Positions 1 to 62,536 of a DNA stretch of 64,000 nt are shown piece after piece. The notes under the pieces were generated by a model. That model worked only from the letters and a program-made list of their open reading frames with translations. It was not told the DNA's origin and searched no databases. This DNA is from an uncultured archaeon. GTDB taxonomy: Archaea; Asgardarchaeota; Hermodarchaeia; Hermodarchaeales; Hermodarchaeaceae. The first letter of the stretch is position 1. Every line of letters starts with the position of its first letter. The translations under genes were made by a program, and so were the position numbers. The DNA lies in NCBI GenBank assembly GCA_964347045.1, contig CAYFXC010000003.1, positions 51,669-115,668 on the forward strand, read 5' to 3'.

Positions 1-2
1 AT

Positions 3-1121
3 ACAGGAACTACATGGGACCTAGTAGTGTACTATAATGATACCTATCACAATTTACCAATAATTGGTGGCAATCTCACAGTAACTATCCCTCAACTCAA
101 TTTCGAAAATATGGACATGCTTGACAATAGAAATGGATATTATTCGTTTACTGTTCCTGCCCTCTTATTAGACAACAGACTCGAAATCGAAATAAACGCA
201 CCAGGTGGTTTACTATATGCTTCTGATACCGAACAAATTATTGTCTATGTCAGACTGGGGCAAGTGGCTCAGGTTACTATAACACTTGGTCTTGTTGCCG
301 CGGTGATTGGAATTGTCATGATTATATTGTGGTTAGCTTATACACGAGTCTTGGCAATTCCTTGGCTTGTCCGGAAGATGCGTAAAATGAGCCGAACCAT
401 TGACAAAGGAAAAACACCCAAACTTTCAAAGAGTGATGTTGGTCGGATTGGCTCTCGATCAGATTTGATGGCTCATATTGCCGAACCTGCCTATGAGACC
501 ATTAGAATACCAATTCCTGCAGCAGTCCTACCTGCGGTAATTGAACATGAAGAACGTTATGCAGAGGATGAAGCCATCTGGGCCGATTTAAAGAAATTGC
601 CACAACTAGAATACGACCAAAAACTTGAATTATTCCAAGAAATGAAACGCATCCCTGCGACCGAACGCGTATGGTTCCTCGAAGACCTAAAACAACAAAT
701 GGCTGATGGTACCCGATTTGCTCGGAAAGCCAAAGAGCCCACTCTTGCACCAGAGCTTGAAAAGGAAATAGAAGAACGATTGAAACAATTTCCCCAATTA
801 AGTAAGGCGGAAAAAGACCGCATCACCAAACAACTTCGTAATGTTCCCAAAGAGGAATGGGAGGAAGTATTCAACACTCTCGCAATTGCATCTAAACCAG
901 AGGTTATTGAAGGTGATGAAGTTCTTCGTCCTGATGAATTACCAGCTATAACTGTAGAAGAACGGGAAAAATTACTTGAAGAATTGAAAGGGTTATCCGA
1001 GGAAGAACGGCGAAAAGTATTGCAAACATTTCGAGAGAAAAAAACCAAGGAAACTGCAGAAGGAGAGGTCGTTAAGGGTGAAAAAGAATTTGAAGTTGAC
1101 GAATCAGACGACAAACAATAG
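3..1121 (+). CDS. Membrane-anchored protein, probably 5' partial, with an extracellular N-terminal part, one TM helix and an E/K-rich cytoplasmic tail
   Basis: The frame of the 27..1121 ORF stays open back to the window edge. It has a hydrophobic helix (LGLVAAVIGIVMIILWLAY) followed by a long charged, coiled-coil-like tail. Confidence 0.5.
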   Translation, partial: TGTTWDLVVYYNDTYHNLPIIGGNLTVTIPQLNFENMDMLDNRNGYYSFTVPALLLDNRLEIEINAPGGLLYASDTEQIIVYVRLGQVAQVTITLGLVAAVIGIVMIILWLAYTRVLAIPWLVRKMRKMSRTIDKGKTPKLSKSDVGRIGSRSDLMAHIAEPAYETIRIPIPAAVLPAVIEHEERYAEDEAIWADLKKLPQLEYDQKLELFQEMKRIPATERVWFLEDLKQQMADGTRFARKAKEPTLAPELEKEIEERLKQFPQLSKAEKDRITKQLRNVPKEEWEEVFNTLAIASKPEVIEGDEVLRPDELPAITVEEREKLLEELKGLSEEERRKVLQTFREKKTKETAEGEVVKGEKEFEVDESDDKQ

Positions 1122-1224
1122 GGTACTCAAAACCATATGATAAAACTATGATAACACTGTCGCAAAAGGGGATGGAATCGGTTGTTCACCACATTTTGTC
1201 TTTCCCCTAATGGAGAAGAGAAAT

Positions 1225-56131: not shown

Positions 56132-56902
56132 ATGCAAATCGAAGTATTAGGAAGCTCATCCTTCATTCCCACCCTAAAAGGCAGCTGGTCTAGCTTCTTT
56201 GTTAATCTTGGAAAGGGTGATCGAATCCTCATTGATGCTGGCACCCGACGCCTTCTCGGTCTACGGAAAGACGTTCTTTCTATAAACCACATCTTCATTA
56301 CCCATCGTCACCCAGACCATGTCATGTTTCTCGGTGCATTATTACGTCGCATGAAACGAAACAAACGTAAAAAACCACTAACGATATTCTGCCCTGTTAA
56401 TGCGTTCTATCATGTAATCGGATACATCCGCTTCTATAATCCGAAAGGTGTTCCAGATTTTGTTAATTTCGAAACTTTTACGCCTGGGAAACCCGAATAT
56501 CTCATTTCACTTTCCAAATCCAACACGGAAATGTGGGCTGCCGCTGCTTGTCATACAACGATGGCAGCAGGATATGGCATTATTCAAGGAGACACCAAAG
56601 TAGTTATTGTACCTGATACTGCTCCAAATTGTAAACCACTTTTGGCGTTGGCAAAGGGTGCCCGTGCACTATTTCATGATACCACGTTTCCCACTGCTAA
56701 ATACGGCTTCGCAGTAGCAAAAGGACATTCAAGTCCAGAAGGTGCTGGCTTGGATGCCGAAAAGGCTAGAGTGCAAACATTAGTGTTAATTCATACTAGT
56801 CGCGCGCGTTCTCGTGACGCACATACTCTCTTTGCAGGTGCTGCGAGATATTTTGGTGGCGAAATTCAAGTAGGTTCAGATACTTCGACATTTACATTTT
56901 AA
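56132..56902 (+). CDS. Metallo-beta-lactamase-fold hydrolase (RNase Z-like)
   Basis: It has the ITHRHPDH motif. I prefer the ATG at 56132. Confidence 0.7.
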   Translation: MQIEVLGSSSFIPTLKGSWSSFFVNLGKGDRILIDAGTRRLLGLRKDVLSINHIFITHRHPDHVMFLGALLRRMKRNKRKKPLTIFCPVNAFYHVIGYIRFYNPKGVPDFVNFETFTPGKPEYLISLSKSNTEMWAAAACHTTMAAGYGIIQGDTKVVIVPDTAPNCKPLLALAKGARALFHDTTFPTAKYGFAVAKGHSSPEGAGLDAEKARVQTLVLIHTSRARSRDAHTLFAGAARYFGGEIQVGSDTSTFTF

Positions 56903-57921
56903 TGTACAAAGCAAGAAATGGTTCCTTGATGACCTCTTCTCATTCAAAAAGAAAAATCCCGACTGTTGCTTGTTTAGGCGAAGTAATCATTGATTTTATT
57001 GCCGAAGAAATTGGAACCCTAGACACAGTCAGTTCTTTTTCTAAGTATCCAGGAGGCGCTCCTGCCAACGTTGCTGTGGGAGTTGCAAGATTGGGTGTTG
57101 CTACTGGATTCATCGGAAAGGTAGGTTTTGACGCTTTTGGAGACTATTTAATTTCTATACTTAAACAAAATGGAGTGGACATAAGGGGCATCACTCAAAC
57201 CAAGGACGCACCGACAGCAGTAGCTTTTGTGAGTCGTTCTACATCCAAAGACCGTGATTTCCTTTTCTACCGTAATCCGTGTGCTGATCTTCTTTTGAAA
57301 AAATCTGAGCTCCCACGGGACTGGTTGACTCAAATTAAGTATTTGCATATCGGTGGTGTGAGTCTAACCCAAGAACCAAGTCGACAAGCAACCATGTATG
57401 CAACAAAAGTTGCTAAACAGAGTGGGGTGAATGTTACTTTTGATCCCAATCTAAGAGTAGATCTTTGGTCAAATGGGCTTCCTGAATGTCGTAAAGTGAT
57501 TCACTCAATCCTTGAAAATACCGATGTCTTTCTTCCCTCTTATGAAGAATTACTGACGCTCATGGCCACTGATAATTTAAACAAGGCATTACTCCGTGCA
57601 CACGATATGGGGCCTTCTATAATTGTTGTAAAAATGGGATCCGATGGGAGTTTAGTCTCAGAGACAAGTCATAAAGGGGAATATCGACAATTTACTCAAT
57701 CTGCTATTGATGTGAAGGTAGTAGATACAACGGGAGCAGGTGATGCCTATGATGCGGGTTTCATTGTAGGGCTTGTTCACGAATTATCAATTGAAGAGGC
57801 AGTTCTATGGGGGACTGCTGTAGCATCTCTTGTGATTACAAAAATTGGTGCAATGACAGCTCTTCCAACAAAAACCGAACTAGCCAATTTCCTAGATGGC
57901 TTTGAGAGAATTGGTTGCTAG
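56902..57921 (+). CDS. PfkB-family carbohydrate kinase
   Basis: It has an N-terminal GEVIIDF motif, GGAPANVA, and the C-terminal DTTGAGDAYDAGF. Confidence 0.85.
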   Translation: MYKARNGSLMTSSHSKRKIPTVACLGEVIIDFIAEEIGTLDTVSSFSKYPGGAPANVAVGVARLGVATGFIGKVGFDAFGDYLISILKQNGVDIRGITQTKDAPTAVAFVSRSTSKDRDFLFYRNPCADLLLKKSELPRDWLTQIKYLHIGGVSLTQEPSRQATMYATKVAKQSGVNVTFDPNLRVDLWSNGLPECRKVIHSILENTDVFLPSYEELLTLMATDNLNKALLRAHDMGPSIIVVKMGSDGSLVSETSHKGEYRQFTQSAIDVKVVDTTGAGDAYDAGFIVGLVHELSIEEAVLWGTAVASLVITKIGAMTALPTKTELANFLDGFERIGC

Positions 57922-58532
57922 GCAACACAATATCGAAAAACGACATGACGACCGGCGGTTTCTGAATCACGAATTATCCGAATTACATCGCCAGGTCGGG
58001 CGCCAATTGCCTTTGCAGCAGGATCTCCTGCCTTGATTTTGGGTAATTGCATCCGGTCAATTCCATATTCTTTCTCAATCGCTTCAATTTCTTTTTGAGT
58101 AATAATATCGTGCTCTGGAACCAGATCATGTTGAAAAAGATCGATTGAAAGAAATCGGTGATGTAAAAGTTCAACATCCATTTCTTTGGCTTCACGTCGA
58201 GCGGCATAGGTGTATCGTTCTCCGCCAATGATGATAGCGTGTGTAAACTCGCCAATATCTCGCGCTTTTATTGTATTTCGTAAAATTTCAACACCAACTG
58301 TGGGTGTATCGAGAATAACCCGAACCAATAGATTGGCTTTCGATTTCTCGATTGTCTTTTTAGCATGGATATCAATAACCCCTTCTTTTTCTCCTTCAAC
58401 TCGCTTTGTAATCTTATATCCTCGTCGCTCAATAAGTCGCTTAAGGTAATTGAACTGCTTGTCTGTTAACACAAATCTCACCAAAGATTCCGGAGTTTTT
58501 CCCACGCTCGCTTCGCGACAGAGGATGAACAA
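57918..58532 (-). CDS. rpoH: RNA polymerase subunit H / Rpb5 homologue with an extra N-terminal domain of about 125 aa
   Basis: The C-terminal 75 aa ([69 protein letters not shown]) are a textbook RpoH/Rpb5 C-domain. The N-terminal part is collinear with the eukaryotic Rpb5 N-domain ([28 protein letters not shown]). Its stop shares a CTAG with the pfkB stop. Confidence 0.8.
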   Translation of the reverse strand: [204 protein letters not shown]

Positions 58533-58568
58533 CTTATAAACATTTGTATCCTCTGGGTTTCTCTTCTC

Positions 58569-61429: not shown

Positions 61430-62536
61430 CTACTTCATTCGACGTGAAAGTGTTATAGTCTCACCCTTTAGTTCTAGAAGTCCTGCCCGGACAAGTTCTT
61501 GTACACGTCGTCGGGCTTCGTAAATACCCACACCTAGAATCTTACTCATCTCTTCAAGGGTGCGTTGACCAGTTTCACGCACCAATAAGTAAATTCGATA
61601 TTTAGAATCTTTTTCAAGAGCTTTTTTCAAATGGTCCAGCTCAACTTCCAAATCGTTGACTCGCCGCCGTAAAACAGTTGTATCTTGCACGGCTTCTCGT
61701 TGTACAATTTCTACAGTTCGAAGTTTAGATGCCTCTTCTTGAGCGTCTTGAGCCAAATCCTTTTTCACAAGTATGTCTTTTTGCAGAGCAACCAGTTCTA
61801 CATCGCGTTTTTTAATGACTTCACGTAACTTCCCAATCTGTTCAGCCATTGCCTCTAGCTGAATTAACAGGTGCTCTTCTCGCTCTTTTGATGTGTTTTC
61901 TAAATTTTTGTGATCTTTTTCAAGTTTCAGAAGCTTCTGTGTAGCCTCTGAAAGTTCCCCTTTTGTTCCTTTGAGCTTTTTCGTCTTATCTTTTTCGCTA
62001 ATAGTGACCTTGTTCAATTCAGTTTCTAAGTCAGTTATCTGCTTTTGTAGTTCTGCGTTATCATTATTTGCTTGATCAAGTTGTTGAGTAAGGGAGGCTA
62101 CCTGTTCATTAAGAACTGCTTTCTTAGTGCTAGTTTCATCAACTTGATTTAGAAGATCAGCAACCTGCTTAGAAATCTCTTGATTCTCATGTTTTACTTT
62201 CCTAAATTCAGCAGTTAACGATGTAATTTCATCACGCAATAGAGCTGTTTCATCTTCGATTTCTTCACTTATTGCTTCAACATGTTCTGCTGGCGTTTCG
62301 GTGACTTCTTTCTCCGATAAAATTTCTGACGGGTCGTCAATTAGTTCAGTATTTGGTTCTTCTGTGGGTTCTTCTGTGGGTTCTTCTGTGGGTTCTTCTG
62401 TGGGTTCTTCTGTGGGTTCAGAAACGGGCTCATCAACAGGTTCGATTGTGTATTCGCTTTTTTGTTCTCCTAGTTTTCGATATCTCCATTTCTTATCAGT
62501 TGAATTTGGTGAGTCCTCAGGCAGCTCAAATGGCAT
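61430..62536 (-). CDS. Acidic-repeat / long coiled-coil protein with a C-terminal winged-helix domain
   Basis: It has an (EPTE)n repeat, about 200 aa of heptad-like sequence, and the C-terminal RTLEEMSKILGVGIYEARRRVQELVRAGLLE. Confidence 0.55.
   Translation of the reverse strand: MPFELPEDSPNSTDKKWRYRKLGEQKSEYTIEPVDEPVSEPTEEPTEEPTEEPTEEPTEEPNTELIDDPSEILSEKEVTETPAEHVEAISEEIEDETALLRDEITSLTAEFRKVKHENQEISKQVADLLNQVDETSTKKAVLNEQVASLTQQLDQANNDNAELQKQITDLETELNKVTISEKDKTKKLKGTKGELSEATQKLLKLEKDHKNLENTSKEREEHLLIQLEAMAEQIGKLREVIKKRDVELVALQKDILVKKDLAQDAQEEASKLRTVEIVQREAVQDTTVLRRRVNDLEVELDHLKKALEKDSKYRIYLLVRETGQRTLEEMSKILGVGIYEARRRVQELVRAGLLELKGETITLSRRMK
62354..62419. repeat. Tandem 12-nt repeat, about 5.5 copies
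   Basis: The unit GGGTTCTTCTGT is repeated head-to-tail. It encodes EPTE repeats in frame on the minus strand. Confidence 0.9.

Follow-up and report, generated by a model that had tools for sequence, protein, structure and literature searches.

A long archaeal RpoH (Rpo5) that joins the polymerase assembly domain to an inactivated Mrr-type domain resembling the jaw domain of eukaryotic Rpb5

The archaeal RNA polymerase subunit RpoH (Rpo5) is described as corresponding to the C-terminal domain of eukaryotic Rpb5 only (PMC3906176, PMC6690254), and a 2012 census of the PD-(D/E)XK families gave the N-terminal domain of Rpb5 (Rpb5_N) as restricted to eukaryotes (PMC3424549). Here we describe a long rpoH/rpo5 gene in a 64,000-nt stretch of DNA (the window) from an uncultured archaeon of the family Hermodarchaeaceae. 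The gene (57918..58484, minus strand, as are all of its parts given below) encodes 188 amino acids (aa), from a TTG start codon at 58484..58482 to a stop codon at 57918..57920. Its product carries the RpoH assembly domain behind an N-terminal domain (N-domain) with the fold of PD-(D/E)XK nucleases, from which catalytic residues have been lost. We think it likely that the protein is a long-form Rpo5 which provides the archaeal polymerase with a lower jaw contacting downstream DNA, and that it stands for the probable ancestor of the Rpb5 N-domain. We found no prior description of a long archaeal Rpo5 in the literature searchable in full text, that is, outside supplementary tables and subscription journals; the sources covered include Asgard genomics papers, a 2026 domain survey of small RNA polymerase subunits and a 2026 census of archaeal folds.

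A genuine RpoH/Rpb5 assembly domain makes up the C-terminal ~75 residues (57927..58142). In the 204-aa reading of the open reading frame (ORF), residues 131 to 202 match the Pfam family RNA_pol_Rpb5_C (PF01191) with an E-value of 1.1e-26 (92.8 bits, for a cutoff of 23.5), and the NCBIfam equivalog model of RpoH (NF007129) gives 99.7 bits, for a cutoff of 83. Compared with the Rpo5 chains of solved archaeal RNA polymerases, this domain is 48 to 51% identical and superposes with a root-mean-square deviation (rmsd) of 1.2 to 1.6 Å and a TM-score normalised to the target (TMt) of 0.86 to 0.93. These matches bear out the original prediction, made by eye from the sequence of the window, that the last ~75 aa are an RpoH/Rpb5 C-domain. 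The two domains are connected by a hinge, RFLSI (58143..58157), which lies between the two Pfam envelopes and at which the confidence of the structural model (predicted local distance difference test, pLDDT) dips to 75.

The N-domain (58158..58484) is ~110 aa long. We describe it as a Mrr-type domain, inactivated and homologous to the jaw domain of Rpb5, to which it is structurally nearest and than which it is less derived; this description draws on Pfam, on profile searches, on AlphaFold2 models compared with Foldseek and on hhalign. Pfam places residues 29 to 125 in Mrr_cat (PF04471), with 34.5 bits for a cutoff of 21. The family NA-iREase1 (PF22722) scored 22 to 24 bits with the window protein, below its cutoff of 27, and 30 to 45 bits with several relatives. 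The alignment pairs the Mrr segment "DGGIDvia...iIQCK" with "idii...lirvi" of the archaeal proteins. Strand beta-2, GVIDIHAK (58359..58382), aligns with Mrr "GGIDvia" and retains the Asp of the PD-(D/E)XK motif, as 23 of the 42 archaeal long forms do. In strand beta-3, LLVRVIL (58311..58331), which aligns with Mrr "iIQCK", the catalytic (E/Q)xK has become RxI. Across the 42 long forms, the first of these columns never holds E or Q (R in 21, W in 10 and other residues in the rest), and the second never holds K (I in 19, V in 8, L in 7 and others). Since both catalytic positions of beta-3 are lost throughout, the N-domain is predicted from its sequence to be nuclease-dead, as is Rpb5_N.

Two segments of the N-domain correspond to parts of yeast Rpb5, the P86 loop and the TPSA motif, that are reported to contact downstream DNA (PMC6690254). 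The loop DTPTVGV (58290..58310), a proposed DNA contact, aligns with D-E-P86-S-V-G-V of the yeast protein. In the numbering of the 187-aa query, its G63 does not vary in the family and its V64 hardly does; the equivalent of Pro86 is found in the DTPTVGV of Hermodarchaeota and not in every subfamily. The second segment (58188..58217) aligns with yeast I-T117-P-S-A and with Mrr "fT..A". R89, T91, A94 and A98 do not vary between family members, and the window sequence RYTYAA keeps the T and A of TPSA, with P and S replaced. A similar inactive N-domain (..RGYE..ID..AS..DEKILIRVIT..) occurs in eleven other proteins of 190 to 280 aa (P0131, P0134, P0138, P0155, P0157, P0167, P0169, P0170, P0183, P0207 and P0236), and Rpb5_C was undetected in these.

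The link with eukaryotic Rpb5 was recovered by several profile comparisons. A search of the PDB with the full-length protein returned full-length eukaryotic Rpb5 as the best matches, in alignments reaching back to residues 47 to 75, an extension into which the strong C-domain could have pulled the alignment. When an N-domain-only alignment of 15 sequences was made into a profile and searched against the PDB, the 11 best matches were all eukaryotic Rpb5, in register (E-values of 3e-6 for human, 1.9e-5 for Arabidopsis and 2.5e-4 for yeast), and no Mrr-family chains were returned. N-domain profiles were also aligned pairwise with hhalign, one built from 42 archaeal long forms, one from 9 eukaryotic Rpb5_N sequences and one from 31 Mrr domains with an intact catalytic site; the eukaryotic profile is made of opisthokonts only (metazoans plus yeast, K. 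phaffii and S. pombe, with yeast checked against 1dzf). The archaeal profile aligned with Rpb5_N over 86 columns with a probability of 97.0% (P = 1.1e-10, score of 61), and Rpb5_N aligned with Mrr with a probability of 91.7% (P = 8e-7, score of 42). The eukaryotic insertion of ~30 residues after helix 1 (yeast ~32-60) is absent from the archaeal N-domain, and hhalign opens its gap there. Under a hidden Markov model (HMM) of eukaryotic Rpb5_N, the median score was 14.7 bits for the archaeal N-domains and 9.5 bits for the Mrr domains, and one archaeal subfamily (P0118) stood out with 42.5 bits. A further protein with the length of the archaeal long forms (P0219, 187 aa) passes the Pfam Rpb5_N model with 28.9 bits and has a eukaryote-like "FIFFPKIPKVGV"; it could come from a reduced eukaryote or a giant virus, or be a further bridging form.

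Structural models likewise agree with Rpb5. We modelled the 187-aa protein with AlphaFold2 from 44 archaeal sequences, using neither eukaryotic sequences nor templates, and obtained a full-length model with a pLDDT of 87 and a predicted TM-score (pTM) of 0.74. The core of its N-domain is alpha-beta-beta-beta-alpha-beta-alpha-beta, as in PD-(D/E)XK enzymes. In the Foldseek search against the PDB, ranks 1 to 35 were taken by full-length Rpb5 of Pol I, II, III and IV together with the homologue of African swine fever virus (ASFV), with E-values down to 4.7e-15, query-normalised TM-scores (TMq) up to 0.84, 194 to 210 aligned columns and an rmsd of 2.5 to 3 Å, so that both domains and their relative orientation agree. 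The short archaeal Rpo5 chains cover only the C-terminal part of the model (TMq of 0.38, TMt of ~0.9), and the first match other than Rpb5 was the Mrr-like AF1548 (E = 2.9e-4, TMq of 0.42). Modelled alone, the N-domain reached a pLDDT of 89.7 and had yeast Rpb5 (1dzf) as its top match (E = 7.2e-5). Its TMq was 0.60 to 0.75 with Rpb5 chains (mostly 0.67 to 0.75) and 0.47 to 0.63 with NucS/EndoMS, AF1548, EcoT38I and MspJI, the E-values of the latter being similar to those of Rpb5. In these models, the preference of the N-domain fold for Rpb5 is real but moderate. The original prediction had also likened the N-domain to the restriction-endonuclease-like jaw domain of Rpb5. The TM-score of 0.84 to full-length Rpb5 bears this out, with the same domain order, hinge and relative orientation, as does the place of yeast Rpb5 at the head of the Foldseek matches of the N-domain model; the three alignments with human Rpb5 that it had made by eye were all reproduced by HMMER or hhalign.

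The full-length gene is carried by 18 species-representative genomes of the Hermodarchaeota type, and both domains are under strong purifying selection. These 18 genomes were assembled independently and share the synteny of the locus and its BRE/TATA element. Among the Hermodarchaeota orthologues, the N-domain has a Nei-Gojobori ratio of nonsynonymous to synonymous substitution rates (dN/dS) of 0.048 and the C-domain one of 0.078, as estimated from 17 to 20 usable pairs with dS near saturation. The gene order CorA, two CoA-transferase genes, long rpoH, PfkB, metallo-beta-lactamase and DUF4139 recurs in independent assemblies, and the proteins of these syntenic, independently assembled genomes are 65 to 73% identical. 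Outside this group, the two-domain gene is present in 19 Bathyarchaeia genomes, 4 of them complete chromosomes, at 35 to 46% identity, with most alignments spanning both domains; the long form thus extends beyond the archaea most closely related to eukaryotes. A search of 1.84 billion representative sequences with the N-domain profile gave 466 matches, which also include eukaryotic Rpb5 (at ~2e-6) and intact Mrr enzymes. Among the best 150 of these 466, more than 40 also carry Rpb5_C according to a local C-domain HMM. Stricter criteria leave 28 compact long forms of 176 to 248 aa, each a 50%-identity cluster, or 27 without P0219, which looks eukaryotic or viral. The named members include Heimdallarchaeota and Hodarchaeales.

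Some less regular architectures and labels were also noticed. Three proteins (P0104, 481 aa; P0124, 436 aa; P0143, 378 aa) have two tandem Mrr-like domains and a further N-terminal region before Rpb5_C, an Rpo5 architecture longer than the two-domain form. In another Rpo5-like protein (P0148, 561 aa), Rpb5_C is split by a Cpn60/TCP-1 chaperonin segment, which may reflect a chimeric gene call or an insertion. A Bathyarchaeia-type long rpoH is found in a metagenome-assembled genome (MAG) named "Krumholzibacteriaceae bacterium" (L029), and MAG contigs named "Thorarchaeota" and "Odinarchaeota" (L012 and L020) carry Hermodarchaeota-type genes with 76 to 79% identity and the same synteny. These three labels likely result from mis-binning or mislabelling.

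The upstream region of the gene is conserved as well and helps to place its start. A 15-nt element (ACAAATG TTTATAAG; 58533..58547) is a putative promoter made of a B recognition element (BRE) and a TATA box. The BRE + TATA-like sequence ACAAAYGTTTATAAG hardly varies between the window and 18 orthologous loci, while its flanks do; it lies ~50 nt upstream of the TTG at 58484 and ends one base before the TTG that opens the 204-aa ORF. Between the TATA box and the start codon, a second block (58498..58521; CTGTCGCGAAGCGAGCGTGGGAAA; CTGTCGCGRNGCGAG) is conserved in the same set of loci and is probably a transcription start site or initiator, a 5' untranslated region or a protein-binding site. A structured RNA was considered for this block and rejected, with only a weak 6-bp hairpin and no meaningful covariation. 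The ORF itself runs uninterrupted over 57918..58532 and gives 204 aa when read from its first TTG. The original prediction had taken this as the length of the protein; the ORF stands, and the protein is shortened to 188 aa. All 61 database homologues begin 16 to 20 residues further in, and the BRE/TATA element abuts the start codon of the 204-aa reading, which was therefore rejected. Orthologues usually have an ATG followed by a GTG at the position where the window has the TTG (58484) followed by a GTG (58481). Because the homologue starts, the alignment with the orthologue ATG and the position of the promoter coincide, we place the gene at 57918..58484, and the start is almost certainly the TTG at 58484 (188 aa) or the GTG at 58481 (187 aa).

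From these observations we infer the following working model. The C-terminal 75 residues are the assembly domain that binds the largest subunit; the protein would be incorporated into RNA polymerase, and the N-domain would dock on the Rpo1'' jaw and lengthen the lower jaw of the enzyme. Through its P-x-VGV loop and the conserved T-x-x-A at a helix start, the N-domain would touch the downstream duplex and, in the manner of Rpb5, stabilise open complexes and elongation complexes. As to its origin, an Mrr-like nuclease domain would have been fused to RpoH within archaea and would then have lost its (E/Q)xK pair; the eukaryotic domain would descend directly from this archaeal long form, with a later insertion of ~30 residues and divergence. 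To the historical part, that the Rpb5 jaw domain arose in archaea from a nuclease-dead Mrr-type domain joined to RpoH and was inherited by eukaryotes, we would give an even chance.

A number of results weigh against this model. As a single sequence, the N-domain found only noise in the PDB (E > 0.4). All of the 15 diverse family members searched with Pfam match Mrr_cat (E ≤ 10; best, 4.5e-13), and also NA-iREase1, while RNA_pol_Rpb5_N (PF03871) has no match at E ≤ 10 with the window protein and matches 2 of the 15 (best, 8e-4). The best archaeal score with Rpb5_N is 17.8 bits, for a gathering cutoff of 27 that no archaeal form reaches; the Pfam model, 89 positions long, spans the eukaryote-specific insertion. 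In hhalign, the archaeal and Mrr profiles aligned with a probability of 99.6% (P = 1e-23) and a score of 126, twice that with Rpb5_N, although this value is inflated, as the Mrr set was taken from matches to the archaeal profile. The archaeal and Mrr domains also interleave in their ranking by the Rpb5_N HMM. Moreover, the distribution is patchy and includes Bathyarchaeia, members of TACK, which suits horizontal transfer or an independent history equally well as descent from Asgard archaea to eukaryotes. The long rpoH never adjoins rpoB: no ORF of at least 900 aa is its neighbour in the window or in any of the 42 long-form loci; the order rpoH-rpoB-rpoA was seen in a control locus (L044), and in Asgard genomes rpoH-rpoB lies outside the conserved cluster, an unlinked rpoH being normal there (PMC10833476). 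Finally, a published Bathyarchaeota Rpo5 has an accession two away from that of Rpo1 (PMC13257274), a hint that some Bathyarchaeia, at least, have rpoH in an operon.

Much of this would be expected if archaea and the eukaryotic stem had each joined a different Mrr-like PD-(D/E)XK domain to RpoH, in which case the archaeal N-domain may still be a jaw or DNA-binding module without being the ancestor of Rpb5_N. The greater proximity to Mrr_cat, the Rpb5_N cutoff that is not reached, the missing insertion, the patchy pattern extending into TACK and an Rpb5_N HMM that barely separates archaeal from Mrr domains are all in favour of such a convergent fusion. Against it, the order of the domains, the length of the hinge and the geometry between them are the same (TM-score of 0.84 over both), and the same catalytic pair was lost in both. 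The archaeal score with Rpb5_N also exceeds that of Mrr with Rpb5_N (61 versus 42), the N-domain profile finds Rpb5 and no Mrr-family chain in the PDB, and Heimdallarchaeota and Hodarchaeales have the long form. We regard convergent fusion as rather unlikely, though it is the alternative to which we give most weight. By its sequence, the archaeal N-domain is an intermediate: it is nearer to Mrr, yet it ties Rpb5_N to the nuclease superfamily more strongly than a direct comparison of the two does. The term "eukaryote-type", which the original prediction had used for it, is too strong given the absent insertion, the scores of 126 with Mrr_cat and 61 with Rpb5_N, and the outcome of the proposed Pfam comparison, which turned out in favour of Mrr_cat (34.5 bits) and not of Rpb5_N.

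Another explanation places the protein outside the polymerase, as a paralogue in a genome that also has a canonical short RpoH. The long protein would then be an accessory factor, which might be a regulator docking on RNA polymerase or a defence-related sensor derived from an inactive restriction-enzyme domain. This would fit a gene that never adjoins rpoB or rpoA, an N-domain that matches NA-iREase1, the inactive nuclease domain of NACHT defence proteins, the spacing of the Bathyarchaeia accessions noted above, and the existence of relatives with the same N-domain and without Rpb5_C. A functional Rpo5 is favoured because the C-domain scores above the equivalog cutoff of RpoH and is conserved between phyla as orthologues are, selection acts strongly on both domains, the BRE/TATA element is near-invariant and matches the consensus, and the neighbours are metabolic housekeeping genes and not defence genes; NACHT/STAND context is absent around the long rpoH. 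The short RpoH proteins recovered from these lineages point in the same direction. A search with the C-domain only gave seven of them (six of 87 aa and one of 71 aa), but with only eight candidates in all it says little on the absence of a short rpoH. Two of the short calls were traced to the same syntenic slot, where the 87-aa call and an uncalled gap of ~390 nt form one ORF of 187 aa, and a Bathyarchaeia record of 91 aa shows the same pattern of truncation. All seven short proteins are taken as truncated calls of this ORF and were rejected as paralogues, and no genuine short RpoH was recovered from these lineages. In the 18 Hermodarchaeota species genomes, a scan limited to two sequence motifs found no second C-domain locus. 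PF01191 serves as a single-copy archaeal marker. Altogether, the suggestion that the gene is a second, long paralogue received no support, and we consider a role outside the polymerase improbable, somewhat less so for Bathyarchaeia.

An error of assembly or gene calling, or a recent transfer from a eukaryote or a giant virus, has very little left to recommend it. The source is a metagenome assembly and the start calls of the gene disagree (87, 187, 195 and 204 aa), but the same ORF, synteny and promoter recur in dozens of assemblies made independently from different samples, which effectively refutes an assembly artefact, including the misassembly that had been raised as a possible source of the fusion. 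Transfer is contradicted by an N-domain that is more Mrr-like, and a C-domain that is more archaeal, than those of any eukaryotic or ASFV Rpb5, and by a GC content of the gene (41%) near that of the window (44%).

Truncation also affects how the gene appears in databases. The shortened records, which come from some of the MAG annotations deposited at NCBI, are annotated as "RNA polymerase subunit H" (2701..3264 of L047, 2665..3264 of L048, P0372-P0378 and P0388). They begin at an internal Met in ...EMDVELLHH..., which hides the N-domain, so that surveys of annotated proteins, meeting records of 87 to 91 aa, miss the long form.

In the window, the long rpoH lies between a PfkB gene and two CoA-transferase subunit genes, with neither rpoB nor rpoA in the 64,000 nt, which confirms the context first described for it. 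The PfkB gene (56902..57921, plus strand) is convergent with the long rpoH, their 3' ends overlapping by 4 nt. This stop-on-stop overlap (57918..57921) is kept in the orthologous loci L001, L045 and L048. The two CoA-transferase genes are upstream of the long rpoH on the same strand. An Rfam scan of the window gave no match. Further upstream, an ORF of 368 aa (61430..62536, minus strand) begins with a run of EPTE repeats (EPTEEPTEEPTEEPTEEPTEE), continues with a long middle part resembling a coiled coil and ends in a segment that looks like a winged helix; the syntenic loci have an unannotated gene of 272 to 322 aa in its place. On a Hermodarchaeota-like metagenome contig, the long rpoH is preceded, 9 kb upstream, by a tubulin/FtsZ-family gene (PF00091, 449 aa; 1..1142 of both L045 and L046).

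The long Rpo5 revises the view that archaeal RpoH has no jaw-like domain and supplies a sequence intermediate between Rpb5_N and the Mrr nucleases. It would add a trait of the transcription machinery to the archaeal inheritance of eukaryotes, and from it the RNA polymerases of Asgard archaea and Bathyarchaeia are predicted to differ in structure. If the domain was indeed inherited, the long Rpo5 would be an overlooked "eukaryotic signature", some archaeal RNA polymerases would already have had a eukaryote-like lower jaw, and its presence in Bathyarchaeia would be due to ancient descent or to transfer.

Among known systems, eukaryotic Rpb5 (RPABC1/ABC27, shared by Pol I, II and III; 1dzf, and chain E of Pol II) has the same two-domain architecture with a hinge. 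The two proteins agree in structure (TM-score of 0.84, rmsd of 2.5 to 3 Å), have the N-domain motifs RGY, P-x-VGV and T-x-x-A in collinear order and have both lost the catalytic residues. They differ in that the archaeal N-domain is ~30 residues shorter (~140 aa in eukaryotes), is only 12 to 19% identical in the structural alignment, falls below the Pfam Rpb5_N cutoff and does not conserve the P and S of TPSA, and in that the archaeal host has a single RNA polymerase. Canonical archaeal Rpo5/RpoH (75 to 90 aa; 8cro_H, 4qiw_H and 2waq_H) is orthologous in its C-domain, but it has no N-domain and usually, as is typical of archaea other than Asgard, lies directly upstream of rpoB-rpoA, where the long form is never found. 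The type IV restriction endonuclease family Mrr_cat (PF04471), with NA-iREase1, is the best sequence-family match of the N-domain and shares with it the core motifs VGV..VR.L, gIlv....fT..A and IEL. In contrast to these enzymes, the long forms have no catalytic (E/Q)xK (0 of 42) and no N-terminal DNA-recognition domain, are fused to an RNA polymerase subunit and have an N-domain structurally nearer to Rpb5 than to AF1548, EcoT38I, MspJI or NucS. Rpo13 of the Sulfolobales sits beside Rpo5 and contacts downstream DNA (PMC13257274; PMC7289017). As described in the literature, it would be a functional analogue of the lower-jaw extension, but this protein is small, helical and unrelated, has a gene of its own and is limited to some Thermoprotei.

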